The position numbers and the translations under genes were made by a program. DNA of 64,000 bases from Thermoanaerobaculia bacterium. Its GTDB lineage: Bacteria > Acidobacteriota > Thermoanaerobaculia > Multivoradales > UBA5704. The notes below the pieces were generated by a model that saw only the letters and a list, made by a program, of their open reading frames with translations, was not told where the DNA came from and did no database searches. Location of the stretch: positions 8,257 to 72,256 of the forward strand of contig JBIOVX010000157.1 of NCBI GenBank assembly GCA_044868005.1, in the 5' to 3' direction. The first letter of the stretch is position 1; each line of letters starts with the position of its first letter. Of this stretch, positions 9,268 to 61,502 are shown in pieces.

Positions 9268-9467
9268 CACTCCGGCGGCGGCGGGCACTATAATCCTGTA
9301 GGAGACCTTGTGTGCTCCCAAGGCGTCCTTTCCCCCTGATCAAGTTGCCCAAAGATTCGTGAGCGGTGCTGCTTCCCGATGCGTGTGTCCAACGGTCCGC
9401 GATGATCGCGGACCGTCTAATTGACCTTCGCCCCGGCATATCGGGGCGACCATTGGAGGAGAATTGC
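9268..9467 (+). promoter_or_regulatory. Structured 5' leader of metalloprotease gene 1 (two hairpins before the SD sequence)
   Basis: The conserved block CACTCCGGCGGCGGC..GCAC....TGTAGGAG is followed by hairpin 9393..9415 (10-bp stem, CGGTCCGCGA-tga-TCGCGGACCG), hairpin 9430..9447 (GCCCCG-gcatat-CGGGGC), and then TGGAGGAG before the ATG. It is homologous to 13408..13566. Confidence 0.4.
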
Positions 9468-12400
9468 ATGCAAGGTAGGGAGCATTCCAGGTTGTTGCTG
9501 AGGAGAGCGGGCCTGCTGGCCGTCCTCCTCGGGATCGTCCTCGCCGGTGCGGCGTGGGCCACCAAGCCTCCGGAGCCGCAGAGTTACATCGACCACAAAG
9601 CCTTCTTCAAGCCGGAGCTGTATATCAGCAGCTCCCAGGTGCCCATCGAGGAGATCCTCGACCAACTCCCCAACCGGGCAGCATGGGGAGAGTACCGGGC
9701 GGCGCGGGAGAAAGCCTTCGGACCGTCGTTCGACGGAGTGCCGCTCGCCTACATCGATCCGCGCTCCGGAGCGGCCACGAGCCTGATGGGCTCCGTGCCG
9801 CTGATCCCCGGCCGCGGCGTGGGCAACCACATCAAGCTCGCGGACCTCTCCGCCAAGCTGGGCCGTCCCATCACCAAGGCGAACAACAAGGCCGTTCTCG
9901 ACGCCGTGCTCGACTACATCAACGCGAACCAGGGCGTGCTCGGCATCGACTTGACGCAGATGGGAAACGGCAGCGCCGCCGACGTCAGCGCGGACCTGTG
10001 GCAGGTCAGCATCCCGCAGTATTACAAAGGCGTGCCGGTGCGCTACGGCCGCATCGCGGCGACGATCAACCGCGGCAACCTGGTGCTGATCGGCACCGAG
10101 ACCTGGGGCGACGTGAAGGGCCTCAGCCACGTGCCGAAGCTCACCGGCGCGCAGGCTTTGACCGCCGGTTTCGCCTACGTCGGCGGCCCGTCGGCCAACG
10201 ACAAGATCCTGCGCCAGCCGACGCTGGAGATCATCCCCGTCAGCGCCACGGGTCCGGTCGGCGCCGGCTACGACCACCGCCTGACCTGGACCTTCGTCTT
10301 CCAGCGCTATCCGGACGACGCCAAGTGGGAGGTCATCGTCGACGCCCACAAAGGCGAGGTCCTCGCACTGCAGGACATCAACCACTACGCCAACCAGCCG
10401 ATCACCGGCGGCGTCTACCCGCTGACCGACACCGGCATCTGTCCCACCCCGGGCACCTGCGGCACGATGCAGAGCAACTGGCCGATGCCGTTCGCCGACA
10501 CCGGCTTCGCGTCGCCCAACAACTTCACCAACAGCGGCGGCATCTACAACTACACCAGCGGCACGGCGACGACGACGTTGACCGGCCGCTACGTCGACAT
10601 CGTCGACAACTGCGGCGCCATCAGCAACAGCTCGGCGACCGGCGCGATCAGCCTCGGCGGCAGCAACAACCAGCACGACTGCACGACCGGCGGCGGCTCG
10701 GCGGGCAACACTCCGGCCTCCCGCTCGGCGTTCTATGAAGTCAACAAGATCGCCGAGCAAGCGCGCGGCTGGCTGCCCACCAACACCTGGTTGAATTCCG
10801 TTTTGACCGCCAACGTCAACATCAACCTGACCTGCAACGGGTTCTGGAACGGCTCGACGATCAACTTCTACCGCTCGGGAGGCGGCTGCCGCAATACCGG
10901 CGAGATCGCCGCCGTCTTCGATCACGAGTGGGGCCACGGGATGGACGACAACGACGCCGCCGGCGCGCTCTCCAACTCCAGCGAAGGCTACGCCGACATC
11001 GCGGCGATCTACCGCCTGCAATCCTCCTGTGTCGGCTACGGCTTCTTCGCCACCCTCGACGACGGCTGCGGCATGACCTCCGACGGCACCAGCTTCAACA
11101 CCAACGAGGCGCAGCAGGGCGCGTCCCACTGCGACCTCGACTGCTCGGGCGTGCGCGACGCCGACTACCTCAAGCACAGCCCGAACACGCCGGACACCGC
11201 GCTCGGCTACGTCTGCACCTCCTGCATCACCGGCACCGGCCCCTGCGGCCGGCAGGTACACTGCGCCGCGGCGCCGACGCGGCAGGCGGCGTGGGACTTC
11301 GCCGCGCGCGACCTGCAGAGCGCGCCCTTCAACCTCGACAGCCAGACGGCCTTCATCGTCGCCAACCGCATCTTCTACCAGGGCAGCGGCAACGTCGGCG
11401 CCTGGCACTCCTGCACCTGCGGCTCCTCCTCCAGCGGCTGCGGCGCCACCAACGGCTACATGCAGTGGCTGGCGGCGGACGACGACAACGGCAACATCAA
11501 CGACGGCACGCCGCACATGACGGCGCTGTTCAACGCCTTCAACCGCCACGGCATCGCCTGCGCGACGCCGACGCCGGTCAACAGCGGTTGCGCCGCCGGG
11601 CCGAGCGCCGCTTCGACGCTCTCCGGCACCGCCGGCGATTACCAGTCGTCGCTGTCGTGGGGCTCGGTGGCGGGAGCGACCCGCTACTGGGTGTTCCGCA
11701 CCGAGGGGCACGCGGGCTGCGACTTCGGCAAGACCAAGATCGGCGAGACCACCGGCCTCTCCTTCACCGACACGCAGGTCGCGGCCGGCCGCAACTACTA
11801 CTACAACGTAGTCGCCGCGGGCTCCTCGAACGCCTGCTCCGGCCTCGCCAGCAACTGCGTCACCGTCACTCCGACGGCGGGCACGCCGACGCCGGACTTC
11901 AGCATCTCGTGCAGCCCGTCGAGCCTGACGGTCACCCAGGGCAGCAACACCACGAGCACCTGCACGGTGACCTCGATTAACGGCTTCGCCAGCTCCGTCA
12001 GCCTCTCGTGCGCCAATCTGCCTTCCGGCTCGAGCTGCAGCTTCAGCCCGAGCTCGGTGACGCCGACGGCGAGCTCCACCCTGACGGTCTCCGCGACCGC
12101 CGGGGCCGCGACCGGCACCTTCACCATCCAGGCCCAGGGCACGAGCGGCGCCACGACGCGCAGCACCAACCTGACGCTCACCGTCAATCCGAGCGGCGGC
12201 GGCGGCGCGCAGACGGCGGTATTCGACGCCACCCTCCAGGCGCCGAAGTGCGCCACGGTGGGGATCTCCTGCGACACCGGCCCGACGCTCGTCAACGGGC
12301 GCGACACCCTGGCCGGCGGCACCGAGCCCAACCAGCCCAACACCATCAACGACTCCTGCGCCGACGGCACCTCCGGCACCTTCCACAGCGACGAGTCGAA

Positions 12401-13283
12401 CGACCGGCTGAAGGTCTCCACCGTCGACGGCACCAACTTCGCGCCGGGCAAGAGCGTGCGCATCGACGCCACCGTGTTCGCCTGGGCCGGCGGGCCGACC
12501 AACGACCACCTGGACCTCTACTTCGCGGCCAACGCCAACAGCCCGAGCTGGACCTTCCTCACCACCATCACGCCGACGGCCGCCCAGGGAGGCGTGCAGA
12601 CGTTCAGCGCCACCTACACGCTGCCCGCGGGCGCGCTGCAAGCGGTGCGGGCGCAGTTCCGCTATCAGGGAACGGCGTCCTCTTGCACCGCCGGCTCGTT
12701 CAACGACCACGACGACCTGGTCTTCGCGGTCACCAGCAATCCGGTGACGACGGTGTTCTTCGACGACTTCGAGACCAGCCTGGGCTGGACGACGAACCCG
12801 AACGGCACCGACACGGCGACCACCGGCCAGTGGGAGCGGGGGAATCCGGAGGATACTAACGACAGCGGAGCCAAGCAGCTCGGCACCACGGTCTCCGGCG
12901 TCAACGATCTGGTGACGGGAGCGCTGGCGGGAGCGAGCGCCGGCGCGTTCGACGTCGACAGCGGCACGACCTCCACCCGTTCGCCCGCCATCACCCTGCC
13001 GTCCACCGGCGTCCTGACGCTGTCGTTCAACTACTACCTGGCGCACGGCACCAACTCCTCGACCGCCGACTTCCTGCGCGTCAGCGTGGTCGGCAGCACC
13101 ACGACGCAGGTCTTCCAGGAGCTGGGCGGCACCGAGAACGACAACGGCGTCTGGGCGACGGCCTCGGCCGACATCAGCGCCTTTGCCGGACAGACCGTCC
13201 GCATCCTCATCGAGGCCGCGGACGCCTCGACGGCCAGCCTGGTGGAAGCCGGCGTCGATGACGTGAAGATCACGCAGCAGTAG
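9468..13283 (+). CDS. Secreted multidomain zinc metalloprotease (gluzincin-like, HEWGH...E), paralog 1, 1271 aa
   Basis: The ATG at 9468 follows GGAGGA. A signal peptide (LLAVLLGIVLAGAAWA) is followed by a propeptide-like region. The zinc site is FDHEWGHGMDDND with SEGYADI 16 residues after the second His, comparable to thermolysin NEAISDI. After a Cys-rich region come an Fn3-like domain, an Ig-like domain, an extra domain of about 180 aa, and a C-terminal jelly-roll-like domain. Confidence 0.85.
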   Translation: MQGREHSRLLLRRAGLLAVLLGIVLAGAAWATKPPEPQSYIDHKAFFKPELYISSSQVPIEEILDQLPNRAAWGEYRAAREKAFGPSFDGVPLAYIDPRSGAATSLMGSVPLIPGRGVGNHIKLADLSAKLGRPITKANNKAVLDAVLDYINANQGVLGIDLTQMGNGSAADVSADLWQVSIPQYYKGVPVRYGRIAATINRGNLVLIGTETWGDVKGLSHVPKLTGAQALTAGFAYVGGPSANDKILRQPTLEIIPVSATGPVGAGYDHRLTWTFVFQRYPDDAKWEVIVDAHKGEVLALQDINHYANQPITGGVYPLTDTGICPTPGTCGTMQSNWPMPFADTGFASPNNFTNSGGIYNYTSGTATTTLTGRYVDIVDNCGAISNSSATGAISLGGSNNQHDCTTGGGSAGNTPASRSAFYEVNKIAEQARGWLPTNTWLNSVLTANVNINLTCNGFWNGSTINFYRSGGGCRNTGEIAAVFDHEWGHGMDDNDAAGALSNSSEGYADIAAIYRLQSSCVGYGFFATLDDGCGMTSDGTSFNTNEAQQGASHCDLDCSGVRDADYLKHSPNTPDTALGYVCTSCITGTGPCGRQVHCAAAPTRQAAWDFAARDLQSAPFNLDSQTAFIVANRIFYQGSGNVGAWHSCTCGSSSSGCGATNGYMQWLAADDDNGNINDGTPHMTALFNAFNRHGIACATPTPVNSGCAAGPSAASTLSGTAGDYQSSLSWGSVAGATRYWVFRTEGHAGCDFGKTKIGETTGLSFTDTQVAAGRNYYYNVVAAGSSNACSGLASNCVTVTPTAGTPTPDFSISCSPSSLTVTQGSNTTSTCTVTSINGFASSVSLSCANLPSGSSCSFSPSSVTPTASSTLTVSATAGAATGTFTIQAQGTSGATTRSTNLTLTVNPSGGGGAQTAVFDATLQAPKCATVGISCDTGPTLVNGRDTLAGGTEPNQPNTINDSCADGTSGTFHSDESNDRLKVSTVDGTNFAPGKSVRIDATVFAWAGGPTNDHLDLYFAANANSPSWTFLTTITPTAAQGGVQTFSATYTLPAGALQAVRAQFRYQGTASSCTAGSFNDHDDLVFAVTSNPVTTVFFDDFETSLGWTTNPNGTDTATTGQWERGNPEDTNDSGAKQLGTTVSGVNDLVTGALAGASAGAFDVDSGTTSTRSPAITLPSTGVLTLSFNYYLAHGTNSSTADFLRVSVVGSTTTQVFQELGGTENDNGVWATASADISAFAGQTVRILIEAADASTASLVEAGVDDVKITQQ

Positions 13284-13566: not shown

Positions 13567-16500
13567 ATGGAACAGTCGAAGCTGTTGCGTCTTTCCCGGA
13601 GGGTTGGCCTGCTCGCGGTCTGTCTCGGAATCGCGCTCGCCGGCGCGCTCTGGGCGGTTACTCCCAAGCAGCCCGGGGGGTCCTACCTCGACCAGAAGGC
13701 TTTCTTCAAGCCGGAGCTGTACATCAGCAGCTCGCAGGTGGCCCTCGAGGACATCCTCGATCAGCTCCCGAACCGGGCGGCGTGGGGAGAGTACCGGGCG
13801 GCGCGGGAGAAGGCCCTCGGGCAGAGGGCTGACGGATTACCCCTCGCCTACATCGATCCGCGCTCCGGAGCGGCCACCAACCTGGTGGGCTCGTTCCCGG
13901 TGATTCCCGGCCGCGGCGTGGGCAATCACATCAAGCTCGCGGACCTGAGCAAGACTTTGGGCCGTCCCGTCACCAAGGCGAACGACAAGGCCGTCCTCGA
14001 CGCCGTGCTCGACTTCATCGCCGCGAACCAGGACGTGCTCGGCGTCGACCTGGAGCAGATCGGAGACGGCCGCGCCGCCGACGTCACGGACGACCTGTGG
14101 CAGGTCAGCATCCCGCAGTATTACAAAGGCGTGCCGGTGCGCTATGGCCGCGTGGTGGCGACGATCAACCGCGGCAACCTGGTGCTGATCGGCACCGAGA
14201 CCTGGGGCAACGTGAAGGGCCTCAGCCACGTGCCGAAGCTCACCGGCGCCGAGGCCTTGACCGCCGGTTTCGCCTACGCCGGCGGCCAGTCGGCGATGGA
14301 CCAGATGCTGCGCCAGCCGGCGCTGGAGATCATTCCCGTCAGCGCCGAGGGTCCGGTCGGCGCCGGCTACGACCACCGCCTGGCCTGGACCTTCGTCTTC
14401 CAGCGGCTGCCCGACGATGCCCAGTGGGAGGTGATCGTCGACGCCCACAAAGGCGAGGTCCTGGCGCTGCAGGACGTCAACCACTACGTCAACCAGCCGA
14501 TCACCGGCGGCGTCTATCCGCTGACCGACACCGGCATCTGCCCGACGCCGCAGACCTGCGGCACCATGCAGAGCGGCTGGCCGATGCCGTTCGCGGACAC
14601 CGGCTTCGCCTCGCCCAACAACTTCACCAACAGCGCCGGCATCTACAACTACACCAGCGGCACGGCGACGACGACCCTGACCGGCCGCTTCGTCGACATC
14701 GTCGACAGCTGCGGCGCCATCAGCAACAGCTCGGCGACCGGCGCCATCAGCCTCGGCGGCAGCAACAACCAGCACGACTGCACCACCGGCGGCGGCTCGG
14801 CGGGCAACACCCCGGCCTCCCGCTCGGCGTTCTATGAGGTGAACAAGATCGCCGAGCAGGCGCGCGGCTGGCTGCCCACCAACACCTGGCTGAACGCCCG
14901 CCTGACCGCCAACGTCAACATCAACCTGACCTGCAACGGCTTCTGGAACGGCTCGACGATCAACTTCTATCGCTCGGGAGGCGGCTGCCGCAACACCGGC
15001 GAGATCGCCGCGGTCTTCGATCACGAGTGGGGCCACGGCCTGGACGACAACGACGCCGCCGGCGTGCTCTCCAACTCCAGCGAAGGCTACGCCGACATCG
15101 CGGCGATCTACCGCCTGCAGTCCTCGTGCGTCGGCTACGGCTTCTTCCAGACGCTCAACGACGGTTGCGGCACGACCTCGGACGGCACCGGCTTCAACAC
15201 CAACGAGGCGCAGCAGGGCGCCGCCCACTGCGACCTCGACTGCTCGGGCGTACGCGACGCCGACTACCTGAAGCACAGCCCGAACACGCCGGACACCGCG
15301 CTCGGCTACGTCTGCACCTCCTGCCTGACGGGCAGCGGCCCGTGCGGCCGGCAGGTGCACTGCGCCGCGGCGCCGACGCGGCAGGCGGCGTGGGACTTCG
15401 CGGCGCGCGACCTGCAGAGCGCGCCCTTCAGCCTCGACAGCCAGACGGCCTTCATCATCGCCAACCGCATCTTCTACCAGGGCAGCGGCAACGTCGGCGC
15501 CTGGCACTCCTGCACCTGCGGCTCCTCCTCCAGCGGCTGCGCCGCGGCGAACGGCTACATGCAGTGGCTGGCGGCGGACGACGACAACGGCAACATCAAC
15601 GACGGCACGCCGCACATGACGGCGCTGTTCAACGCCTTCAACCGTCACGGCATCGCCTGCTCGACGCCGACGGCGGTCAACAGCGGCTGCGGCGGCGGGC
15701 CCAGCGCCGCGCCGACGCTCTCCGGCACGGCGGGCAACTTCCAGTCCTCGTTGTCGTGGAATTCCGTCTCGGGAGCCACCCGGTACTGGGTGTTCCGCAG
15801 CGAAGGCCACGCCGGCTGCAACTTCGGCAAGACCAAGATCGCCGAGACGACCGGCCTCTCCTTCACCGACACACAGGTGGCCAACGGCCGCAACTACTAC
15901 TACAACATCGTGGCCGCCGGCGCCTCCAACGCCTGCTCCGGGCGGGCCAGCAACTGCGTCACGGTGACTCCGGTCGCCTCGGCCACGCCGGACTTCACCA
16001 TCTCCTGCAGCCCGTCGAGCCTCTCGGCCGCCCAGGGCGGCAGCGCCACGAGCACCTGCACGGTGACCTCGCAGAACGGCTTCAACAGCGCCGTCAGCCT
16101 GTCGTGCAGCGGCCTGCCGAGCGGCGCGACCTGCTCGTTCTCCCCGGCCTCGGTGACGCCACCGGCCAACGGCAGCGCCAACAGCTCGCTGACCGTCAAC
16201 GTGTCGGGCAGCACGCCCACCGGCACCACCAATTTCAATGTCAACGGCGTCTCCGGCTCGCTGTCGCATAGCGCCGCCATGTCGCTCACCGTGACGGGTA
16301 CCACGGTCACCGTCTTCTTCGACAACTTCGAGACCAGCCTGGGGTGGACGACCAACCCGAGCGGCACCGACACGGCGACCACCGGCCAGTGGGAGCGCGG
16401 CGATCCGGAGCAGACGACCGACGGCACGAACGTCATGCAGCTCGGCACCACCGTCAGCGGCACCAACGACCTGGTGACCGCACGCCTGGCCGGCGCCTCG

Positions 16501-16845
16501 GTGGGCGCGAACGACGTCGACGGCGGCTTGACCTCCATCCGGTCGCCCGCCATCACGCTGCCCGCCACCGGCACGCTGACCCTGTCGTTCTCCCGGTACT
16601 TCGCGCACCTCAACAACTCCTCGAGCGCCGACTTCCTGCGGGTGAGCGTGGTCGGCAGCACCACGACGGTGGTCTACCAGGAGCTGGGTGCGGCCACCAC
16701 AGATGTCGCGTCGTGGGTCACCACCACGGCCAACATCAGCGCCTTCGCCGGCCAGACGATCCGCATCCTCATCGAGGCTACGGACGCCTCGACGGGCAGC
16801 CTGGTGGAAGCGGGTATCGACGACGTGAGGATCACGCAGCAGTAG
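13567..16845 (+). CDS. Secreted multidomain zinc metalloprotease, paralog 2, 1092 aa
   Basis: By eye, roughly nine residues in ten match paralog 1 over the first 830 aa or so, including FDHEWGHGLDDND and SEGYADI. It lacks the extra domain of about 180 aa but shares the C-terminal domain. Confidence 0.85.
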   Translation: MEQSKLLRLSRRVGLLAVCLGIALAGALWAVTPKQPGGSYLDQKAFFKPELYISSSQVALEDILDQLPNRAAWGEYRAAREKALGQRADGLPLAYIDPRSGAATNLVGSFPVIPGRGVGNHIKLADLSKTLGRPVTKANDKAVLDAVLDFIAANQDVLGVDLEQIGDGRAADVTDDLWQVSIPQYYKGVPVRYGRVVATINRGNLVLIGTETWGNVKGLSHVPKLTGAEALTAGFAYAGGQSAMDQMLRQPALEIIPVSAEGPVGAGYDHRLAWTFVFQRLPDDAQWEVIVDAHKGEVLALQDVNHYVNQPITGGVYPLTDTGICPTPQTCGTMQSGWPMPFADTGFASPNNFTNSAGIYNYTSGTATTTLTGRFVDIVDSCGAISNSSATGAISLGGSNNQHDCTTGGGSAGNTPASRSAFYEVNKIAEQARGWLPTNTWLNARLTANVNINLTCNGFWNGSTINFYRSGGGCRNTGEIAAVFDHEWGHGLDDNDAAGVLSNSSEGYADIAAIYRLQSSCVGYGFFQTLNDGCGTTSDGTGFNTNEAQQGAAHCDLDCSGVRDADYLKHSPNTPDTALGYVCTSCLTGSGPCGRQVHCAAAPTRQAAWDFAARDLQSAPFSLDSQTAFIIANRIFYQGSGNVGAWHSCTCGSSSSGCAAANGYMQWLAADDDNGNINDGTPHMTALFNAFNRHGIACSTPTAVNSGCGGGPSAAPTLSGTAGNFQSSLSWNSVSGATRYWVFRSEGHAGCNFGKTKIAETTGLSFTDTQVANGRNYYYNIVAAGASNACSGRASNCVTVTPVASATPDFTISCSPSSLSAAQGGSATSTCTVTSQNGFNSAVSLSCSGLPSGATCSFSPASVTPPANGSANSSLTVNVSGSTPTGTTNFNVNGVSGSLSHSAAMSLTVTGTTVTVFFDNFETSLGWTTNPSGTDTATTGQWERGDPEQTTDGTNVMQLGTTVSGTNDLVTARLAGASVGANDVDGGLTSIRSPAITLPATGTLTLSFSRYFAHLNNSSSADFLRVSVVGSTTTVVYQELGAATTDVASWVTTTANISAFAGQTIRILIEATDASTGSLVEAGIDDVRITQQ

Positions 16846-52039: not shown

Positions 52040-52582
52040 ATGGTCGACGCAGACGACGCCAGGATCAGCGACGAGACGTTGATCGGCCGGGTCGCGGCCG
52101 GGGATCGCTCCGCCTTCGAGCGCCTGGTCAGGCGCCATCACGCCATGGTGTATCGGTTCGCGCGGGCCGCCGCGCCGGAAGAGATCGATCCCGAGGAGAT
52201 CCTGCGCGAGACCTTTCTCTTCGCCCGTCGCGGCGCCGGCCGCTATCGTGACGAGCCTTCGGGCCGCTCCTGGCTCCTCGCCTTCGCCCGGCGGGCTATC
52301 GACGGACGATCCCTGCGGCGCAACTCCGGTTCGGCATCTCTGGGCGAGTTGGCGCGGACGGCGGCTCGGCGAGGCTGTCCCGCCTGGGAGGGCACCGCCG
52401 CCGCCCTGGCGGCGCTGCCGGCCGAGGACCGCGAGATCCTTACCCTCTATGAACGCGAGCTCCTCACGCTGGAAGAGGTGGCGCGGGTCATCGGCATCAC
52501 CGATGCGGCTCTGCGGACGCGGCTCCACCGGGCGCGCTTGCGGCTGCTGGCGGAGCTCAAGGGAAACGTCCGTGGAGGATGA
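52040..52582 (+). CDS. ECF-type RNA polymerase sigma factor
   Basis: Region 2 is FERLVRRHHAMVYRFA. Region 4 is LPAEDREILTLYERELLTLEEVARVIGITDAALRTRLHRARLRL. Confidence 0.9.
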   Translation: MVDADDARISDETLIGRVAAGDRSAFERLVRRHHAMVYRFARAAAPEEIDPEEILRETFLFARRGAGRYRDEPSGRSWLLAFARRAIDGRSLRRNSGSASLGELARTAARRGCPAWEGTAAALAALPAEDREILTLYERELLTLEEVARVIGITDAALRTRLHRARLRLLAELKGNVRGG

Positions 52583-52838
52583 ACGGATCGTCGCCGGCCT
52601 GCACTGCGGCGAAGTGCTGGCGGATCTGACCGAGCACCTCGACGGCCGGCTGAGCCCGCAGCGGACATTCCGCATCGGCGAGCACCTGCACGGCTGCGAC
52701 GACTGCCAGCGGCTCGCCGAGGAGATCTCGGCCGTCGTGGGCGCGCTTCGCGGTCTGCCGGAGGAACCGTTGCCGCCGGAAGTCGAAGCGCGCCTGCTCG
52801 CCGGCCTCGATTCCGCGGAGGACGGAACGCATGGCTGA
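52572..52838 (+). CDS. Zinc-finger (ZAS, H-x3-C-x2-C) anti-sigma factor, short and apparently soluble
   Basis: A GTG at 52572 overlaps the sigma stop by 11 nt. The motif HLHGCDDC is present. The protein is 88 aa with no TM helix. Confidence 0.7.
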   Translation: MEDERIVAGLHCGEVLADLTEHLDGRLSPQRTFRIGEHLHGCDDCQRLAEEISAVVGALRGLPEEPLPPEVEARLLAGLDSAEDGTHG

Positions 52839-53286
52839 CCTCGAGATCCGCTCGGCCGTGCCGGCAGACGCGCCGGCGATCGTCGAGTTTCAGATCCTCA
52901 TGGCACGTGAGACCGAGGATCTGGAGCTCGACCGCGAGACCATCACGGGGGGCGTCGGCGCCGTCTTTGCCGATCCCGCCAAGGGAACCTACTGGCTCGC
53001 CGAGCGCGACGGCCGCATCGCCGGCTGCCTGCTCACGACCTACGAATGGAGCGACTGGCGCAACGGCACCGTGCTCTGGATTCAATCGGTGTACGTCCCA
53101 CCCGAGCAGCGCGGCCACGGCATCTACCGCGCGCTGTACGAGCATCTGAAGCGTCGGGTCGAGCTTGAACCTGGCCTCAAAGGCATTCGTCTCTACGTCG
53201 ACCGGCGCAACGCCGTGGCGCAGCGGGTATACGCACGGCTGGGGATGACCCGGGAGCACTATGATCTGTTTGAATGGATGAAGTAG
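52831..53286 (+). CDS. GNAT-family N-acetyltransferase
   Basis: IQSVYVPPEQRGHGIYRALYEHLKRRV is an acetyl-CoA-binding motif A-like segment. The gene overlaps the anti-sigma stop by 8 nt. Confidence 0.85.
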   Translation: MADLEIRSAVPADAPAIVEFQILMARETEDLELDRETITGGVGAVFADPAKGTYWLAERDGRIAGCLLTTYEWSDWRNGTVLWIQSVYVPPEQRGHGIYRALYEHLKRRVELEPGLKGIRLYVDRRNAVAQRVYARLGMTREHYDLFEWMK

Positions 53287-56200
53287 GCGCGCCTTCCCCT
53301 CTCCCCCGCACCCGCAGGCGACGCCTGCGCCGGATCGCCTGGATCGCCGTCCTGGTCCTGGTGGTCTTGCCGGCGCTGACCGTCCTCTCGATCTTGGCCG
53401 CGCTGCGGGCGGCGGGCGTGCGCCAGGCCATCCTCGGCCGCATCTCCTCTCTGCTGGCGGAGGACTACGGGCTCGCGGTCACGGCGCGGGACTTCTCTCC
53501 TCTCTGGCGGCGCAGCGGTATCGAGCTCCACGATGTCCGGCTGGGCGCGCCGCGCGCGGCACCGATCGTCCATGCCCGGCGGGTGTGGCTTGAAATCGAT
53601 CTCGGCACCTTGCGAGACCGGCCGCTGGTGGTGAGATCGCTGGACGCCGACGGCCTGCTCGTCGATCTCAAGGCGCCATTGCCCAAGCTCCCCGAGTCCA
53701 CTCCGGAGGAAGCCGGCGCCGGACCGCCGGTAGAGATCTTGCGGATCGCTCTTCGCAATTCCGAGGTTCGGGGCGCCGCCCTGGCCAAGCCCGCATCGGA
53801 CTGGCTGCGGAGCTGGAACGCCCAAGGCATTGACGCCCGAGGCTCGTACCGCGGCGGCCGGCTGGAACTGGAGGTCGAACGGGGGAAGGCGATCCTCGAC
53901 AGGCCGGGGTTCGGCCTTCAGGAGCTGCATCTCGCGGGCCGCATCGGCCACGAGGAGAAGAAGCCGCTCCGCATCGACGGCCTGACGGTGACCGGCGACG
54001 GCCTGCGCCTGGCCGCCTCTGGAATCGTCGGGCTGGAAGAAGGCTCCCCTACCGCCGCCCGCTTCGACCTCTACGCCGAGCCGCGCGCCATCGCGTCTGG
54101 CCTGCCTGCTCGCGGACAGATCAGGGCGATCGGACGGATGGCGCTGCCGGAGATCTCGGGCCAACTGAGGATCATGGCGACGGAGATTCCGGCCGAAGCG
54201 CTGCGGCCTTATCTCGATCCCAAGCTGTACGCCGATCTCGCCCTGGCCGGCACCGTGGCGGACGTGAAAGCGGACGCGACAGTGGGTCCGGGAGACTGGA
54301 ACCGGATCGCCGGAAAAACGGAGCTGACTTGGAACCGCGGCGGCCGGCGCCTGGCCCGCGCCGAGGCTCGCCTGTCTCCGGGCGACACCGCGACTCCCAT
54401 CGTCGCCAACTTGACGGCGGAGATCCTGCCGGCCTCTCCCGGCCGCCGGTTCATCCAAGGCACGGTGCGCGTTGCGAGCTGGCAGGAGTTGGCTCGCGCC
54501 ACGGCCGAAGGCGTGCGGGCCGAGATCCGTCTCCCCGACGTGCGCGCCGCCTTGGCGGAGGTCCGCTCGCTGTGGCCGCGCCTAGTGCCGGCCGTACCTC
54601 CGGGGATGCCGCTCCAAGGATCGCTGAATGCGAACGCTCGCCTATCGGGTCCCCTGACCACGCCCGAAGCCGTTATCGATGCCACGTGGCTGCCCCGGGC
54701 CGGCTCCCGCGTACAAGTCGCGGCGAAGGGCAGGCCCGACACCTGGAGCGGCTCGGCCAAAGTGGAGACGGAAAATCTGCCGCTGGAGATGCTCGGCGCC
54801 ATGGCGCCCGGCCTCGCCGGCAGCGTCACCGGCACGGCGGAGCTCTCCGGTTCCCCTCGCGGCTATCTCGTCCGCCTCGCGACCACGACGGCGGCCGTAG
54901 CGTTTCCGCCCCAGCTCCAGCGTCTGGAGAGCGCAACGGTGAGCGCCGATGGGACGCTGACCCTGCAGCCATTGTCCTATCGCGGAATCCTTTCCCTCGA
55001 CGGCTCCGGTTTGATCGCTTCACCCAACGCTTCTTCGACAGCTCAGATCGCGCAGTTCGATCTCGACTTGGACGGCGTCCTAAAAGGCTCGCCTTTGCGG
55101 TGGGACGGCAAGGTGACGCTCACCGGCGAGAACGCCGAGATGCAGGGAACCGGCCGAGCGGATCGCTTCGCGGCCGCGGGAGACGGCGCCCTGCAGCTCG
55201 AGCCGCTCGCATACAGCGGAACGCTGACGCTGGACGCGGGTCAGGTTGCCCTGACAGAGCAGGACTTGGAGATCCAGGACCTTCACCTGGAGGCCGCCGG
55301 GGACCACCGCGAGATTCGCCTCTCCGCTCTCTCCGGCGAGCTTCCGGAAGGCCGCACTTTCAACGCTTCCGGACGGATCGTCACCAAGCCGCTGCTCGCC
55401 GAGGCCGATCTCGATCTCCAACTCGTCAAGCCGGTGGACGCCGTCCCAGCCGTCGATCTCACCGCGAAATTGCGCGATGGGCTCGTCGAGGTGGAGGCGC
55501 CGCGCATCGACACCGCCTCCGGCCCGGGAAGCCTGCACGCGCAGATTCCCCTGGAGGCGCTGCGCGCGGTGCCACAGCTCGTCTCGATTCTCGAATCGTT
55601 GCCCGGCGAGAAGGCGCGGGGACCGGTCTCCCTCTCCTTCTCGTTCCCGGAGCTCGACTCCGAGCCTCTGCTCGCGGCTCTGGGGATGGAGCCCAGGCCC
55701 GAGCGGCTGCGGGCCGGGGTGAGCGCCGATCTCTCCCTGGATCTCGCCTCGCCCGCGGCCGGCAGCGGAGAGGTACGCCTCTCCGGCCTGACCGTCGAGA
55801 CCCCGGACGGCCGCATCGCCGCCGAGACTCCCGCCGTGCTCCGCCTGGCCGGCGGCAGGCTCGACCTTGCGCCCGTCCATCTGCGGATCGACGGCGGCTC
55901 GATCCAGGGAGCGGGGATCGATCTCGCGGCGAGCGCAGAGCTGGTGCCTTCATGGAAACCGTTCGATGACCCGGTCACGGCGGCGGTCTCACGGCTCTCG
56001 GCCGAGGGCAACGGTACGCTCGACGCCGCGCTCCTCAATCCCTATCTGCAAGGCGGCGTGGCCGAGGGCTCGCTCCTCTTCTCGGCCAAGGCCTCGGGCA
56101 CGCTGGACCGTCTCGCCGCCGAGGTGCGGGCGAGCGGCCCCGGAGCCTCCTTCGTCTGGCCGGCGGCGGCCGTCCGCGTCAGCGATCCGCGGCTGGCCCT

Positions 56201-59200
56201 CGACCTGCGCGATAGCCGCTGGACGATCCGCGAGGGGCGGATGGGCGTCAACGCCGGCACGGTGGAGCTCGCGGGAGGTCTCTCGCCCGGCGGAGCCCTG
56301 GACGTGGAGGCGCAGCTCGCGGGCGTCCACTACCGTCTGGACTACGGGATCGAGACCATGCTCTCCGGCCGCCTCAACCTCCAGTCTGCTCCCGATGAGC
56401 GCACCCGCCTTTCCGGCAAGGTGAGCGTGGATCGCGGCGTGCTCAACCGGGATCTCAATCTGGACCGCGAGGTCTTGGCGCTCCTCTTCAAGCCGCCGGA
56501 GGTTCCCAGCACGGAAGAGAGCGCGCTGGCCGCCGTGGACCTGGACCTCGAGATCGAGACGCGCGAGGGTGTGCGGATCAAGAACAACGTTGCCGATCTG
56601 CGGGCTTCCTGGCGCCAGCTCGAGGTCGGCGGCACGCTGGAGACGCCGGTGATCCGCGGGCGCATCGAGCTCGATCCCGAAGGCCGCTTCTACGCTTACG
56701 GCCAGACGGTGCGGATCGACCGCGGCTCGCTGCTGTTCACCGGCGACCCTCTGACCGATCCGCAGATCGATCTGGTCACCACCTCGTCCCTCCAGGATCC
56801 GACGATCGGGCAGTTGCGGGGCGCCGGCCCGCTCGACCTGCTGGCGCGCCCTCAGGACGACGACGAGAAAGAGGGGCCTGGGACCTCGGAGGTGCTGGCC
56901 GCCGGGCTCTCGGGTTACTACGGCCACCGCGTGTTCCAGCGCCTCGGCGAGTCGCTCGGCCTCGGCAACGTGTCGGTGGTGCCGGATCTGGAGAACGATC
57001 CCACCGCGCGCCTGATCGTGGGTCGCGATCTCTCGACGAGCGTCTCCCTCGCCCTCTCGATGGACCTGCGCAACGTCGAGCGGCAGACCTACTTGGTCGA
57101 CCTCCACGAGCTTCCTTCTCTGCCGGGGCTGCGCGTCGAAGGCTTCACCAACGACTCCGGGAGCGAAGGCGCCAACCTCCAGCAGTCGCTCGACTTCGGC
57201 GGCGGCGAGCCGCGACGGCGCGAGACTGGTCCGCGGCTTCGCCGGCTGGTGATCGAAACACCGAAAGGCGTCTCCCGCCGCGAGATCCGCCGTGCTGCCG
57301 GCCTGGAGAAAAAGGCGCCGGTACCGGAGGGGACGGCCTTCGCCGTCGAGGTCAACGTGGCCGACTTCCTGCGCCGCAAGCGATACCCGGATCCACGCGT
57401 CGAAGTCGCGGTGCAGCCTGTCGAGTCGCGGCCCGGCTGGGTGGACGTGAAGATCGCCGTGCAGCCGGGTCCCCGCGCGTCCTTCGTCTTCGCGGGAGAC
57501 CGGCCGCCCCGGGCTCTGCGGCCGGAGATCACCGCCCTCTATCGGACCGACTTCTATGAGCCCACCTCGATCGAGGAGATGCGTCAGGAGGCGGTGCGCG
57601 TCTTTCGCAGCCTCGGCCATCTCGATCCGCAGGTGGAGATCGAGATCCGAAAGGAGCGCCCGGAGGATCCTGCCGGCCCGAGAACGGTCACGGTCACGAC
57701 GAAGGCCGGTCCCCGGCAGACGCTGCGGGAGCTCGAGATCGCAGGATTGCCGCCGGAGGAGGAGCGCCTGGCGGCCGGCGCTTTCCCCAGCCTGCTTGCC
57801 CGCGTCGAGCTCGCCGCCGCCCTGCCGGATGCCGACGCCCGCCTGCTCAACCTGTTGCGGGGTCTCGGCTTTCCCCGAGCCCGGATCGCCGGCCGAGCCG
57901 TCGCAGCGGACGGTTCCCGGCTGGCCGTGGACGTCGAGCCCGGCCCGCGGCAGATCGTGTCGGCGGTGCGACTCACCGGATTGGAGGAGGAAAAAGAGGA
58001 GCGGCAGCGGCTCCAGTCAATGCTCCCCGTGCGTGCCGGAGATCCCGCTCGCATGGATCGCGTCGCGCAGGGGAAGCTGCTCCTGGAGGGCGACCTCCGC
58101 GACCGCGGCTACGCCGACGCGACCGTCCGATTCTCCGTGGTGCCCGCGGCCGGACGGCCGGACGACATCGAGGTGGTTTACGAAGTCACAACCGGCGAGC
58201 GATACCGGCTGGCCGGCGTCGAGATTGAAGGCGAGCGCTGGTCCAAGCCGGCGCCCATGCGGCGCCAGGCGGGTCTCGCCGCCGGCGAGCCCTTCACCGA
58301 GGCCGGCGTCGAGGAGGCCCGCAACCGGCTGTTCAGCACCGGCGTCTTCTCCCAGGTGGACACGACGGTGGAAAAGAAGGATGGCGAGGCCAAGGTCTCC
58401 TTCTCGCTCGCCGAGCGCCCGCGCTTCCATCTGGGCTACGGTGCACGCTGGGAGAGCGAAGAGGGAACCGCCGCCGTTCTCGATTTCGTCGACCGGAACT
58501 TCCTCGGCCGCGCCCTGGCCCTCGGCCTGCGCGGCCTCTACCAGTCCGACGACCGGAGCGGCCGGCTCTACCTGTACACCGGCGGCGTCCTGGGCACTCA
58601 GATCTCCTTCGACGGCTACGCCGAGTCCCGCCGGCGTCTCTTCACCGAGGACAATTTGGCGGAGGACCGGCTCGAGGTGGCGCTCCAAGCCAGCCGACCG
58701 CTCGGCGAATCCGCCACCGCGCGGATCTACGCCCGCCACCGCACCACCCATCTCTTCGAGATCGAACCGAACGAGTTCTTCCCGATCGACCTGAAGCTCA
58801 CCCTCCCTTACGTGGGCGCGCAACTCCAGTACGACACGCGAGACGACGACATCGATCCCAGATCCGGACTTCTCGCCAGCGCCGACCTCTCCGGGAGTGG
58901 CGACTTCCTGGGCAGCGATTTTCAATACCTCCGCCTGTTCGCTCAGACGATGTCGTTCCGGGATATCTCGTTTGCCGGCCGGCCCGGGACTTGGGCGCAG
59001 GCGGTGCGGGTGGGGCTCGCTCATTCATTCGGCGAGGATCTCGTCCCGGACGAGCGGTTCCGCGCTGGCGGCCCATATTCGGTACGCGGCTACGAGCGGG
59101 AGAGCCTGGGGCCGCAGCAATTCCTTGGCGGCACGGTCCTGGCGACCGGGGGGGAGGCGCTGCTCGTCATCAACGAGGAGCTGCGGTTCGCCCTGCCCTG

Positions 59201-59408
59201 GGATCTGACCGGCCTCGCCTTCTTCGACGCGGGCCAGGTGTGGGCGCGGCCAGGTGACGCGGACTTCGATCTGGCGAAATCGGTGGGATTGGGATTGCGG
59301 GCGCGCTCTCCCGTCGGCCTGCTGCGGCTCGACGCGGCCTATCCTCTCGATCGGCGGCGCGGAGAGCCGCGCTACAAGCTCTATCTCGGCTTCGGCAACG
59401 CCTTCTGA
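53274..59408 (+). CDS. Fusion protein: TamB-like (signal-anchor plus DUF490-type C-terminus) joined to POTRA repeats and an Omp85/TamA-type beta-barrel, 2044 aa
   Basis: The N-terminal anchor is RRIAWIAVLVLVVLPALTVLSILAAL. A long repetitive beta-rich region follows. A DUF490-like stretch reads GTLETPVIRGRIELDPEGRFYAYGQTVRIDRGSLLFTGDPLTDPQIDLV. From about nt 57200 there are POTRA-like repeats and a barrel (RFRAGGPYSVRGYERESLGP...LRLDAAYPL...YKLYLGFGNAF, with a terminal Phe). There is no stop codon or frame change in the window sequence. Confidence 0.8.
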   Translation: MDEVGAPSPLPRTRRRRLRRIAWIAVLVLVVLPALTVLSILAALRAAGVRQAILGRISSLLAEDYGLAVTARDFSPLWRRSGIELHDVRLGAPRAAPIVHARRVWLEIDLGTLRDRPLVVRSLDADGLLVDLKAPLPKLPESTPEEAGAGPPVEILRIALRNSEVRGAALAKPASDWLRSWNAQGIDARGSYRGGRLELEVERGKAILDRPGFGLQELHLAGRIGHEEKKPLRIDGLTVTGDGLRLAASGIVGLEEGSPTAARFDLYAEPRAIASGLPARGQIRAIGRMALPEISGQLRIMATEIPAEALRPYLDPKLYADLALAGTVADVKADATVGPGDWNRIAGKTELTWNRGGRRLARAEARLSPGDTATPIVANLTAEILPASPGRRFIQGTVRVASWQELARATAEGVRAEIRLPDVRAALAEVRSLWPRLVPAVPPGMPLQGSLNANARLSGPLTTPEAVIDATWLPRAGSRVQVAAKGRPDTWSGSAKVETENLPLEMLGAMAPGLAGSVTGTAELSGSPRGYLVRLATTTAAVAFPPQLQRLESATVSADGTLTLQPLSYRGILSLDGSGLIASPNASSTAQIAQFDLDLDGVLKGSPLRWDGKVTLTGENAEMQGTGRADRFAAAGDGALQLEPLAYSGTLTLDAGQVALTEQDLEIQDLHLEAAGDHREIRLSALSGELPEGRTFNASGRIVTKPLLAEADLDLQLVKPVDAVPAVDLTAKLRDGLVEVEAPRIDTASGPGSLHAQIPLEALRAVPQLVSILESLPGEKARGPVSLSFSFPELDSEPLLAALGMEPRPERLRAGVSADLSLDLASPAAGSGEVRLSGLTVETPDGRIAAETPAVLRLAGGRLDLAPVHLRIDGGSIQGAGIDLAASAELVPSWKPFDDPVTAAVSRLSAEGNGTLDAALLNPYLQGGVAEGSLLFSAKASGTLDRLAAEVRASGPGASFVWPAAAVRVSDPRLALDLRDSRWTIREGRMGVNAGTVELAGGLSPGGALDVEAQLAGVHYRLDYGIETMLSGRLNLQSAPDERTRLSGKVSVDRGVLNRDLNLDREVLALLFKPPEVPSTEESALAAVDLDLEIETREGVRIKNNVADLRASWRQLEVGGTLETPVIRGRIELDPEGRFYAYGQTVRIDRGSLLFTGDPLTDPQIDLVTTSSLQDPTIGQLRGAGPLDLLARPQDDDEKEGPGTSEVLAAGLSGYYGHRVFQRLGESLGLGNVSVVPDLENDPTARLIVGRDLSTSVSLALSMDLRNVERQTYLVDLHELPSLPGLRVEGFTNDSGSEGANLQQSLDFGGGEPRRRETGPRLRRLVIETPKGVSRREIRRAAGLEKKAPVPEGTAFAVEVNVADFLRRKRYPDPRVEVAVQPVESRPGWVDVKIAVQPGPRASFVFAGDRPPRALRPEITALYRTDFYEPTSIEEMRQEAVRVFRSLGHLDPQVEIEIRKERPEDPAGPRTVTVTTKAGPRQTLRELEIAGLPPEEERLAAGAFPSLLARVELAAALPDADARLLNLLRGLGFPRARIAGRAVAADGSRLAVDVEPGPRQIVSAVRLTGLEEEKEERQRLQSMLPVRAGDPARMDRVAQGKLLLEGDLRDRGYADATVRFSVVPAAGRPDDIEVVYEVTTGERYRLAGVEIEGERWSKPAPMRRQAGLAAGEPFTEAGVEEARNRLFSTGVFSQVDTTVEKKDGEAKVSFSLAERPRFHLGYGARWESEEGTAAVLDFVDRNFLGRALALGLRGLYQSDDRSGRLYLYTGGVLGTQISFDGYAESRRRLFTEDNLAEDRLEVALQASRPLGESATARIYARHRTTHLFEIEPNEFFPIDLKLTLPYVGAQLQYDTRDDDIDPRSGLLASADLSGSGDFLGSDFQYLRLFAQTMSFRDISFAGRPGTWAQAVRVGLAHSFGEDLVPDERFRAGGPYSVRGYERESLGPQQFLGGTVLATGGEALLVINEELRFALPWDLTGLAFFDAGQVWARPGDADFDLAKSVGLGLRARSPVGLLRLDAAYPLDRRRGEPRYKLYLGFGNAF

Positions 59409-59411: not shown

Positions 59412-60242
59412 TCAGTGCTGCACCGCGCGCAGGACGGCCTTGGCCTGCTCGGCCTCGGGCGCGTTGGGAGCGAGGGCAAGGAAGCGTTCCATGTCGCTGA
59501 CCAGGAGATCCTTGCGCTTCAACTCGTATTGGGCCAACCCACGGTAGTAATACGCATAGGCAAGCCCTGAGTCCATGCCGATGGCGCTGGAGAGTTGCGC
59601 GACGGCGGCCTCCCAATCCTTTTGGAAGGCGCGGGTGACGCCGATCTGGTAGGGAATGAGGGCCGGCGCCGGCGCCCGGGCTCCCTGCAGGGTCGAGACC
59701 GCCTCGTCATACTGCTTGAGCCGCTGCTGGGCGACGCCGAGGTAGTAGGCGGACTCCGCGCCGCCTTTCGCACGCGCCAGGTCCGCGGCCGTCCGGAAGG
59801 CGCCGGCGGCGGCGCCATCCCGCCGCTGGCGGAGGTAGACCTCGCCGAGAGAGACGAACGCCGCGGGATCGTTGGGCGCCAGCTCCGTCGCCTTGCGCAG
59901 CCGGCCCTCGGCCTCGCCGTACTTCTGTTCCTGCTCGAGGACGCGGCCATAGGCAGCGGCCACGTAGGCGTTGGCGTCCGCCTGGTCCATGAACCGGCCC
60001 AGGGCGTCGCGGGCCGCGCCGGTCTGGTAATGCCACAGCCGCTCGTCGACGCTATCGAGACCCGCAGGCGGCGCCTGCTGCGTCTGCGCCGGCTGGTCCT
60101 GCGCAGGTTGCTGCTGGCTCTGCGGCTGGTTGCCCGGCTTCGGCTTCTTCGGCGGCCTGGCCTGAGCGGCGAAAGAGAGGGCGAAAAGAAGCACCGTCAG
60201 ACCGGCTATGGCCGTGGGAGATTTATGGTTCATATCGATCAT
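59412..60242 (-). CDS. Secreted TPR-repeat protein
   Basis: It has a signal peptide, a Gln/Pro-rich linker, and then TPR-like repeats (AYVAAAYGRVLEQEQKYGEAEGRLRKATELAPNDP...). The start could instead be the ATG at 60233. Confidence 0.75.
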   Translation of the reverse strand: MIDMNHKSPTAIAGLTVLLFALSFAAQARPPKKPKPGNQPQSQQQPAQDQPAQTQQAPPAGLDSVDERLWHYQTGAARDALGRFMDQADANAYVAAAYGRVLEQEQKYGEAEGRLRKATELAPNDPAAFVSLGEVYLRQRRDGAAAGAFRTAADLARAKGGAESAYYLGVAQQRLKQYDEAVSTLQGARAPAPALIPYQIGVTRAFQKDWEAAVAQLSSAIGMDSGLAYAYYYRGLAQYELKRKDLLVSDMERFLALAPNAPEAEQAKAVLRAVQH

Positions 60243-61078
60243 TGTAATCGACCCGGCGCCGGAGGTTCCGCGGGCATTGACGAAGCGTTTCGCCAGCTAC
60301 CGGGAAACCCGCGAAAGAAGGCGGCGACGGCAGCGAACAGCTCGCGCGGATGCCGGCGAACACGATGCGCGAGCTCCTTCAGACGGAGTCCTTGGATTCG
60401 CAGAGCCTCCAAAGTCCGCTCGTCCGAGGACCAACGCTGCACGGTCGCCACGGCGGCGAGGCCGAGCACGGCTCCCCCACCAAGGTCGAGCAGGTGGTGC
60501 TCGTGCATCAGCAGGGCCGAGAGAGTGACAGTGACCGCCCACAGCCCGAACAAGATCTTTCCCACCCAGCCGCACCGGCGTCCGTAGACGATCGCCGCCG
60601 TGACGGCGAACGCCACGTGGAGCGACGGGAACTCGTTGTAGTCGAGATTCAACCGGTCTGCGAGCCGGAAGATCGCACCGCCGAATCCGTAGGCCTCCCG
60701 ATGCGGGAAGCCCTGGGCCATGGGAAGCAGCAGGAAGAACAGCCCTCCCACCAGCGTCTCGACCGTGAGGGTGAGGAAGAACGGCGTGAAGCTGCGCCAG
60801 GTGCGCAGGATGAACGGCGCGAGCAGGAGCAGCAGCGGTACCGACAGATAGACGATGGCGACCGAGGGCACGAACGGCAGGCGCAGCTCCCAGTCGAAGT
60901 GGAAGGTCTGGCGCGCGCCGCGCAGCCTGGCGAGGAGGCTGGCACCGCCGTAGATCGAGAAGAAGATCTTCGAGAACAGGTAAGCGAGCGGCAGCGAGAA
61001 CCGCAGGCTCGCGAGGCCGGGCCAGGCGAGGAGGGGCTCGGCGCCCCGCGGGTTTCGTCTAGCTGCAGCGATAGCCAT
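60239..61078 (-). CDS. PAP2-superfamily membrane protein (phosphatase / phosphotransferase-like)
   Basis: I chose the ATG at 61078. The protein has several TM helices and the PAP2 C2/C3 motifs PSLHVAF and HEHHLLD. Confidence 0.7.
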   Translation of the reverse strand: MAIAAARRNPRGAEPLLAWPGLASLRFSLPLAYLFSKIFFSIYGGASLLARLRGARQTFHFDWELRLPFVPSVAIVYLSVPLLLLLAPFILRTWRSFTPFFLTLTVETLVGGLFFLLLPMAQGFPHREAYGFGGAIFRLADRLNLDYNEFPSLHVAFAVTAAIVYGRRCGWVGKILFGLWAVTVTLSALLMHEHHLLDLGGGAVLGLAAVATVQRWSSDERTLEALRIQGLRLKELAHRVRRHPRELFAAVAAFFRGFPGSWRNASSMPAEPPAPGRLQ

Positions 61079-61121
61079 CGAATCGTTCAACGTTCTCCAT
61101 TGTAGACGGATTCCACAAGCC

Positions 61122-61502
61122 TCACCGCAGCGTGTAGAGAAAAGCGGCGATGTCCCGCACGTCGCGCTCGGTAACACCCAGCTCAGGCATCGCGGTGCCC
61201 GGCTGAATCTCCTGGGGAGCGCGGATCCAGCGCATCAGGTTGTCCGGGGTGTTCGGCAGCCCGCCGGCGAGAGTGGGCCGGCTGGCGATGCCGTCGAGCG
61301 GCGGACCGACCTGGCCGCGAGCCGCCGCGACTCCCGGAATGCTGTGGCAGGCCTCGCAGCCGTACCGGGGGATGATCTCCTTGCCGCGCGCCGGACTGCC
61401 GCCGGTCATCGCGGCAGCCTTCCGCTCGATGTCCTCCCCGCACCCGCAGAGCAGGACGAGCGCCGCTGCAAGCCCGACTTTGATCAGAACCTTGTCGAGC
61501 AT
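61122..61502 (-). CDS. c-type cytochrome lipoprotein
   Basis: It has a lipobox LVLLCGC, a heme site CEACH and a distal MPELG. Its ATG overlaps the TGA of the upstream TPR gene (TGATG). Confidence 0.85.
   Translation of the reverse strand: MLDKVLIKVGLAAALVLLCGCGEDIERKAAAMTGGSPARGKEIIPRYGCEACHSIPGVAAARGQVGPPLDGIASRPTLAGGLPNTPDNLMRWIRAPQEIQPGTAMPELGVTERDVRDIAAFLYTLR

Follow-up and report, generated by a model that had tools for sequence, protein, structure and literature searches.

Described TamB and Omp85 systems

The proteobacterial translocation and assembly module (TAM) consists of two polypeptides, encoded by tamA and then tamB. In Escherichia coli (YtfM/YtfN; structures 9xdc and 9xdd), TamB combines an N-terminal inner-membrane anchor, a beta-taco that spans the periplasm and includes DUF490, followed by an amphipathic helix and by six strands at the C-terminus, the last of which is beta-signal-like, and its partner TamA is an Omp85 protein with three POTRA domains and a 16-strand barrel that bears the VRGY motif in loop 6. 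A gene with the same inventory of elements, the helix and the six strands being predicted, lies in a stretch of 64,000 nucleotides from a Thermoanaerobaculia bacterium (contig JBIOVX010000157.1), referred to below as the window and cited by its own positions. Its product is a single polypeptide in which a TamB-like half is followed by an Omp85 half. In this fusion, the order of the two parts is the reverse of the TAM operon, the beta-signal-like strand of the TamB-like half is internal rather than C-terminal, a separate signal peptide is missing from the Omp85 half, and five POTRA domains replace the three of TamA.

Residues 1251-1259 of E. coli TamB form its last, beta-signal-like strand, which pairs with strand beta1 of TamA into a hybrid barrel; the other C-terminal TamB strands are located in or at the barrel, and the groove of the taco carries phospholipid (PMC12800296, PMC13119328). 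These findings supersede the docking of the TamB C-terminus to the TamA POTRA domains, on which the original prediction for this locus had drawn. The two cryo-EM studies, both from 2026, disagree on the status of the hybrid barrel, which is taken either as a stable functional state or as one of two states that interchange (PMC12800296, PMC13119328). The E. coli TAM is a 1:1 complex (PMC11014939).

Outside Proteobacteria, pairings of TamB with BamA have been reported, such as BB0794-BamA in Borrelia and those with the 'second BamA' of Aquificae and Acidobacteria (PMC4494059, PMC5582053). As in the fusion, TamB works there with an Omp85 protein of five or more POTRA domains and the two genes are adjacent. 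The described pairings are separate genes, which in Acidobacteria are ordered BamA then TamB (PMC4494059), and the fusion reverses this order. Heinz et al. (2015, PMC4494059) proposed that TamA originated from the acidobacterial second copy. BamA (TIGR03303) shares five POTRA domains and a 16-strand barrel with the fusion, but has its own cleavable signal peptide.

Two further systems are comparable in part. The elongated MlaD of Veillonella parvula was proposed to join an inner-membrane lipid module and an outer-membrane beta-barrel in a single chain (Grasekamp et al. 2023, PMC10665443). It is a proposed precedent for one chain that reaches both membranes as a trans-envelope phospholipid bridge, although it has an unrelated fold (MCE hexamer and helical tube) and a barrel outside the Omp85 family, and its lipid flow is thought to be retrograde, opposite to that of TamB. 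The AsmA-like bridges YhdP and YdbH-YnbE (PMC11126948) have in common with the fusion a lipid conduit (putative in the fusion) that is anchored in the inner membrane and made of a repeating beta-groove; their contact with the outer membrane is made via a lipoprotein or is unknown, whereas the fusion carries its barrel in the same chain.

One reading frame encodes both halves

The gene and the elements of its product are located as follows, with the evidence for each in brackets.

53274..59408, + strand: complete fusion gene, 2044 aa plus stop (open reading frame list, translation, in-frame third-position GC content, full-length homologs)
53331..53408, + strand: putative N-terminal signal anchor, aa 20-45, IAWIAVLVLVVLPALTVLSILAAL (hydropathy, AlphaFold2 helix aa 17-45)
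53469..56786, + strand: TamB/AsmA-like beta-taco body, aa 66-1171, near-continuous predicted beta-strands (AlphaFold2, Foldseek, weak Pfam matches)
56247..56798, + strand: Pfam TamB (DUF490) match, aa 992-1175 (PF04357; profile alignment to E. coli TamB)
56787..56957, + strand: low-confidence loop and long amphipathic helix aa 1204-1228 (AlphaFold2 secondary structure and pLDDT; profile alignment)
56967..57197, + strand: six predicted amphipathic beta-strands, aa 1232-1308 (AlphaFold2 strand pLDDT about 70-89; conservation; colinearity)
57198..57233, + strand: junction linker GGGEPRRRETGP, aa 1309-1320, 12 aa (alignment of 242 sequences)
57234..58415, + strand: five POTRA domains, aa 1321-1714 (AlphaFold2, Foldseek, Pfam)
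58425..59405, + strand: 16-strand Omp85 barrel, aa 1718-2044 (PF01103, AlphaFold2, motifs, Foldseek)

The open reading frame (ORF) begins with an ATG codon and its translation contains no internal stop over 2044 codons. The GC content at third codon positions (GC3) lies between 0.79 and 0.91 in the fusion frame for every 300-nt block, the junction block included, and this uniformity indicates one coding frame from end to end. In Pfam searches, the TamB family PF04357 (DUF490) matched aa 992-1175 with 58.8 bits (gathering score 22.4; E 7e-16), the POTRA family PF07244 reached 71.2 bits with 2 significant stretches and the Omp85 family PF01103 matched aa 1742-2044 with 132.3 bits (E 4e-38), the last two likewise above their gathering scores. 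The N-terminus gave weak matches to YhdP-N and DUF748.

The original prediction, which proposed a single uninterrupted 2044-aa ORF at this place, is thus borne out by the ORF list, the stop-free translation and the GC3 profile. The predicted order of an anchor, a TamB-like part, a DUF490-like stretch, an Arg-rich junction, POTRA-like repeats and a barrel was recovered with every element in the expected position: the suggested Arg-rich junction near nt 57200 is the linker at nt 57198-57233, the protein C-terminus YKLYLGFGNAF ends in the anticipated GFGNAF, and the proposed Pfam/HMMER check of the domain boundaries placed TamB, POTRA and Omp85 as just described. The TamB-type nature of the N-terminal part is backed by the PF04357 score and by structural matches to TamB chains (see below).

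The TamB-like half

The fold of the protein was predicted with AlphaFold2 (AF2) in two overlapping models (aa 1-1200 and aa 845-2044), each computed from a 50-sequence alignment. The model of aa 1-1200 (window 53274-56873; mean predicted local distance difference test score, pLDDT, 87.2) shows a helix at aa 17-45 followed by beta-strands from aa 68 to 1171. The segment aa 20-45 is the sole strongly hydrophobic 19-aa window of the whole fusion (Kyte-Doolittle score 2.9) and is preceded by the positive patch RTRRRRLRR; by analogy with TamB, this anchor probably stays uncleaved. In Foldseek searches, the same model matched the TamB chains of the TamAB cryo-EM structures, 9xdd_B and 9xdc_B, with probability 1.0 and target-normalised TM-scores (TMt) of 0.46-0.49, and 5vtg, the crystal structure of the beta-taco of TamB963-1138, with TMt 0.58-0.65. 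The human ApoB100 lipid-wrapping beta-belt (9e9r, 9bde) is also among the top matches of the taco and ranks alongside the TamB chains (E about 1e-7, low TM-scores). These ApoB100 matches likely reflect a shared amphipathic beta-sheet architecture and not homology.

A profile of aa 1090-1322 aligns colinearly to residues 1032-1196 of the 1259 residues of E. coli TamB (E 7e-17), a range that spans helix alpha2 and strand beta1. Within this alignment, the long amphipathic helix at aa 1204-1228 is colinear with E. coli TamB 1160-1184 and corresponds to alpha2 (PMC12800296). About 80 profile positions are left opposite the final 63 E. coli TamB residues, which carry beta2 to beta6. In the fusion, six strands are predicted to follow the helix and, by analogy with the E. 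coli complex, they may insert into the outer membrane. The last of them, EGANLQQSLDF, contains a motif conserved in the columns of the 242-sequence alignment, G-x-x-L-Q-Q-x-[LF]-x-[LFW]. Its alternating pattern resembles the beta-signal of an outer-membrane protein (OMP), yet stands at an internal position of the chain.

The junction between the halves

Since the last TamB strand pairs with beta1 of TamA in the known complex, a short linker of fixed length is the most informative feature of the fusion. The junction statistics were derived from 242 non-identical sequences. Between the last TamB-like strand and POTRA1, the linker has a median length of 11 aa (10th-90th percentile, 10-16). It begins with two conserved glycines (G1309 in 232/242 and G1310 in 202/242 sequences) and ends with a conserved proline (P1320 in 192/242); columns 1312-1316 in between are variable or gapped, without conservation of the Arg residues. 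None of the 242 sequences has a hydrophobic run like that of a signal peptide near or after the junction. As judged from this alignment, the junction is under selection for its length and its GG and P boundaries. Gap artefacts in the columns of linker and loops prevailed in a direct-coupling analysis between the last TamB strand and the first strand of the barrel (effective number of sequences, Meff, 172; 252 columns).

The most distant members of the fusion family, P0111 and P0112 (about 2430 aa; L083:10001-17320), have an insertion of about 100 aa at the junction. The insertion resembles an additional POTRA-like unit placed before the aligned POTRA1, and the linker of these proteins is longer and Gly-rich.

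The Omp85 half

The AF2 model of aa 845-2044 (pLDDT 83.3; predicted TM-score, pTM, 0.63) runs in order through the end of the taco, a disordered loop, the helix, the six strands, the linker, five POTRA units and the 16-strand barrel. Each POTRA unit has the order beta-alpha-alpha-beta-beta, and their number exceeds the three of TamA. The barrel carries the loop-6 VRGY motif at aa 1937 and ends in the C-terminal beta-signal LGFGNAF. In Foldseek, this model could be aligned over about 810 columns to full-length BamA chains with five POTRA domains, and its last three POTRA domains plus barrel matched TamA (8us1, 4c00) at TMt 0.68-0.72.

When the POTRA-barrel part was used as a query on its own, the matches with strong E-values were fragments of fusions only. 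Among unfused proteins, those nearest to the barrel are of the TamA type, about 600-670 aa long and 26-32% identical, and include named TamA proteins of Alphaproteobacteria; the two that were inspected each stand in a canonical tamA-tamB operon (602+1119 aa and 607+1170 aa). The matches listed for this query, whose candidates were selected by a word-based method, include no BamA of about 800 aa. The barrel is a TamA-clade barrel by sequence with a five-POTRA, BamA-like arm. The TamA-like character that had been expected of the Omp85 half therefore holds for its nearest unfused relatives, but not for its five POTRA domains, which give it a BamA-like architecture. The combination fits the acidobacterial 'second BamA, monophyletic with TamA' (PMC4494059).

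Conservation of the fusion in Thermoanaerobaculia

The exact fusion protein is on record on 4 contigs. A word-indexed homology search returned 112 clusters, about 100 of which are full-length (1900-2460 aa) with the same Pfam architecture and identities from 73% down to 23%; the taxon names of the full-length homologs are Thermoanaerobaculia, Vicinamibacteria/-ales and Acidobacteriota. In all sequences of a MAFFT alignment of 104 homologs, a short linker connects the terminal motif of TamB to POTRA1. An exhaustive HMMER search with aa 1040-1480 against 1.84 billion representatives clustered at 50% identity (E<=1e-30) yielded 144 matches, nearly all of which (about 140 clusters) cross the junction in one stretch and belong to proteins of about 1900-2280 aa.

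At the genome level, the GTDB species representatives were scanned with a junction-spanning query built from a 6-sequence alignment, and 80 loci were kept from 95 relatives. All 80 cover both sides of the junction, and all come from metagenome-assembled genomes (MAGs) of Thermoanaerobaculia (including Ca. Multivoradales), 'Holophagales' or Acidobacteriota. A complete frame from stop to stop was available at 64 loci, and at 61 of these it is uninterrupted over 1890-2620 aa. The three short frames (L028, L047 and L067) are all located on long-read contigs. Separate TamB-only and Omp85-only calls were also encountered (P0070-P0072, P0277), of which P0071 corresponds to L047, and P0072 and P0284 lie on one European Nucleotide Archive contig (L087).

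Tracing with tblastn revealed that L028, L047, L067 and L087 are colinear full-length genes with frame changes at arbitrary positions and not at the junction. A clean split at the junction was therefore rejected for these four, which are frameshifted fusions. At L084 (P0324), an Omp85-only call stands directly downstream of TamB fragments; this locus is too divergent for frame changes to be traced by tblastn and is read here as a broken fusion. On the long-read contigs of both L084 and L087, neighbouring genes such as AcrB and permeases are fragmented as well. Records broken in this manner mimic a split tamB/tamA state in protein databases. Among the apparent split loci traced in this clade, a clean pair of tamB and a signal-peptide-bearing omp85 was not found.

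A survey of fused versus split tamB-tamA in Acidobacteriota had been suggested along with the prediction; among the relatives recovered here, the fused form prevails and the apparent splits are broken genes. A missed stop or frameshift, the error that could have produced the frame, is ruled out by the 61 open frames at species level, the roughly 140 junction-spanning clusters and the 4 identical contigs. The fusion is not an assembly artefact and its conservation is far beyond chance. Nor is it a simple read-through, because the order TamB then Omp85 reverses both that of the tamA-tamB operon and the reported BamA-TamB order.

One MAG (MFD03551.bin.2.56) contains two full-length fusion paralogs that are 36% identical (L054:6653-13057 and L070:6461-13024). 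Unless the bin is mixed, this pair suggests duplication and divergence of the single-chain module.

A probable single-chain TAM and its alternatives

We consider it likely, on the analogy with E. coli TamAB, that the gene encodes a complete TAM as one polypeptide that resides in both membranes and carries phospholipid. Sequence architecture, conservation and predicted folds are shown here, and the steps of the mechanism are transferred from E. coli TamAB. In such a mechanism, Sec would insert the N-terminal anchor into the inner membrane and export the remaining approximately 2000 aa, the beta-taco would span the periplasm, and a separate beta-barrel assembly machinery (BAM) complex would insert the C-terminal barrel, which bears its own canonical beta-signal, into the outer membrane. 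The six TamB-like strands would lie within the outer membrane, paired with beta1 of the fused barrel, giving a hybrid barrel as in E. coli TamAB. In beta-barrels, a strand that pairs with beta1 runs antiparallel to it, and for this reason the last TamB-like strand would exit on the periplasmic side. There, the 11-aa tether would hold POTRA1 near the mouth of the barrel and the five POTRA domains would return to beta1 in a closed loop. Inner and outer membrane would thereby be joined 1:1, covalently and permanently, by a bridge through whose hydrophobic groove phospholipid would flow to the outer membrane, with a possible role in the assembly of some outer-membrane proteins. The more specific proposal that throughout the class the protein is an uncleaved TAM in both membranes, with the internal beta-signal strand hybridised in cis and the 11-residue tether closing the POTRA loop, may be right or wrong with about equal chance.

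Several observations weigh against this assignment. All three NCBIfam equivalog models (TamA, TamB and BamA) remain far under their cut-offs on the fusion: 42.1 bits against 825 for NF047952 (autotransporter assembly complex protein TamB), 102 against 625 for the TamA model NF047950 and 171.7 against 297.15 for the BamA model TIGR03303, which is the best NCBIfam match; the TamL model also matches under its equivalog cut-off. On these scores, the N-terminal part is best described as a TamB-family protein and not as an equivalog of proteobacterial TamB. Strands beta2 to beta6 have no detectable sequence similarity to E. coli TamB, the profile alignment stopping at residue 1196, and a single-sequence search of aa 1150-1320 against the sequences of the Protein Data Bank gave no match. 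The homology of these strands to those of TamB is suggested by colinearity and predicted structure, not by sequence. [quoted passage not shown]

The arrangement as such has other conceivable explanations. The fusion could be a precursor polyprotein, in which one chain serves as an export device and a protease cuts the junction after translocation to release separate TamB and TamA-like subunits. Such a device would account for an Omp85 half that has no signal peptide of its own, in this protein or after the junction in any homolog, and it would restore the two chains of the canonical system; the Arg-rich linker of this protein would offer a place to cut. These arginines, however, are not conserved, and the conserved length and the GG...P pattern look like a structural tether rather than a protease site. 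An 11-aa segment beside a membrane-embedded strand would moreover be poorly accessible, and no protease gene is conserved adjoining the fusion, so that processing of this kind appears unlikely. Alternatively, the TamB strands might engage the barrel of a neighbouring molecule in trans, which would create dimers or chains and no closed intramolecular loop. The tether, which is hard to fit with an extended five-POTRA arm, and the poor full-length BamA superpositions are in line with this idea, but the AF2 monomer model is confident without a partner (strand pLDDT 70-89 at the pTM given above) and the TAM of E. coli is 1:1 (PMC11014939), and we regard a bridge in trans as quite unlikely.

It is also conceivable that the Omp85 half is the only BamA of the organism, a general insertase tethered to the inner membrane via TamB. 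The five POTRA domains and the first rank of TIGR03303 point in this direction, several phyla pair TamB with a sole BamA (PMC4494059), and no other Omp85 protein was seen in the 64-kb window or in the approximately 10-kb flanks (less at contig ends) of the 80 loci. The inspected sequence, however, covers very little of any genome, TIGR03303 stays well under its 297-bit cut-off, and the unfused proteins closest to the barrel are TamA-type proteins from tamA-tamB operons, with BamA-sized proteins absent among the matches listed. Acidobacteria have been reported to possess a canonical BamA and a second, TamA-related copy (PMC4494059), and two divergent fusion paralogs occur in one MAG; a role as sole BamA is accordingly judged very unlikely. 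A missed stop, a frameshift or a chimeric assembly that joined an ordinary tamB to an ordinary tamA could be suspected from the few related loci with split calls. Yet these are frame-broken genes on long-read contigs in which other genes are fragmented too, and uniform GC3, identical proteins on 4 contigs, frames open in 61 species-level genomes, a gene order opposite to tamA-tamB operons and an Omp85 half with neither a start context nor a signal peptide leave an artefact with a negligible probability.

Genomic neighbourhood

The fusion protein may have an accessory component encoded next to it.

59412..60242, - strand: secreted tetratricopeptide repeat (TPR) protein, 276 aa, candidate accessory gene (signal peptide, TPR Pfam matches, recurrence)

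The TPR gene is convergent with the fusion gene and only 3 nt separate the two stop codons. The protein has a Sec-type signal peptide (AQA/R cleavage) without a lipobox and a Gln/Pro-rich spacer. At 51 of 67 loci, a homolog is located downstream on the opposite strand, at a distance of up to 400 nt in 32 cases, and the TPR protein may be a periplasmic partner or chaperone of the fusion. In the MAG with two paralogs, the TPR neighbour is found at L054 only and not at L070. Adjoining the TPR gene is a gene for a PAP2-superfamily (lipid phosphatase-like) membrane protein (window 60239-61177, - strand), with a homolog in 6 related loci; its proximity to a putative lipid conduit could be meaningful or coincidental.

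Upstream on the same strand are an S9 peptidase gene and a trio encoding an extracytoplasmic function (ECF) sigma factor, a zf-HC2 anti-sigma factor and a GNAT acetyltransferase (trio at window 52040-53286, + strand). The stop codon of the GNAT gene overlaps the start of the fusion gene by 13 nt, an arrangement that suggests co-transcription at this locus. The trio was considered as a part of the system and rejected, as it is conserved only in the two closest loci (L001 and L002), to which the sharing of the S9 peptidase gene is likewise confined. Neither a second Omp85 nor a second TamB gene was found in the window or in the flanks of the 80 related loci inspected as above. Elsewhere in the window, ORFs of more than 1000 aa at 9366-13283 and 13567-16845 (+ strand), which are accompanied by long antisense ORFs, have no Pfam match at E<=1e-5.

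A common but uncharacterised arrangement

In open-access PMC and bioRxiv full text, including the main TAM, Omp85 and AsmA papers, no description of a natural TamB-Omp85 fusion was found. The papers without it include Heinz 2014/2015, the work on Borrelia TamB, the 2023/2024 reviews, the TamL work and both 2026 structure papers, and the two studies of BamA-TamB pairings (PMC4494059, PMC5582053) do not mention one. In databases, fusion proteins bear the generic labels 'TamB domain-containing protein', 'BamA' or 'TamA'. The assumption that the fusion had not been characterised before holds insofar as no open-access paper describes it; the architecture itself is common within Thermoanaerobaculia and generically annotated, and is uncharacterised rather than unseen. 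The gap in the literature may stem from the fact that the genome matches are all MAGs. The components are known, and what is new is the covalent arrangement, the internal beta-signal, the five-POTRA barrel of the TamA clade and the fixed tether.

Implications for lipid transport and envelope biogenesis

The route by which phospholipid reaches the Gram-negative outer membrane is still debated, and a natural TamB-Omp85 fusion bears directly on the dispute over stable versus interchanging hybrid barrels. The fusion implies a fixed 1:1 stoichiometry, a last TamB strand that is permanently close to the Omp85 module and tolerance of a beta-signal-like strand that is internal and not C-terminal. If the bridge is indeed locked in cis, nature would already have carried out the covalent-locking experiment, which would favour the stable over the transient hybrid-barrel model, and a free TamB C-terminus and the exchange of subunits would be dispensable.

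The fusion also poses a problem of biogenesis, as a chain of about 220 kDa would have to stay in the inner membrane with its N-terminus during the insertion of its C-terminal barrel into the outer membrane by BAM. The fusion further offers a single-chain target for structural work. From an evolutionary point of view, it adds a third arrangement to the history of BamA/TamA and TamB, in the very phylum that was proposed as the cradle of TamA (Heinz et al., PMC4494059).

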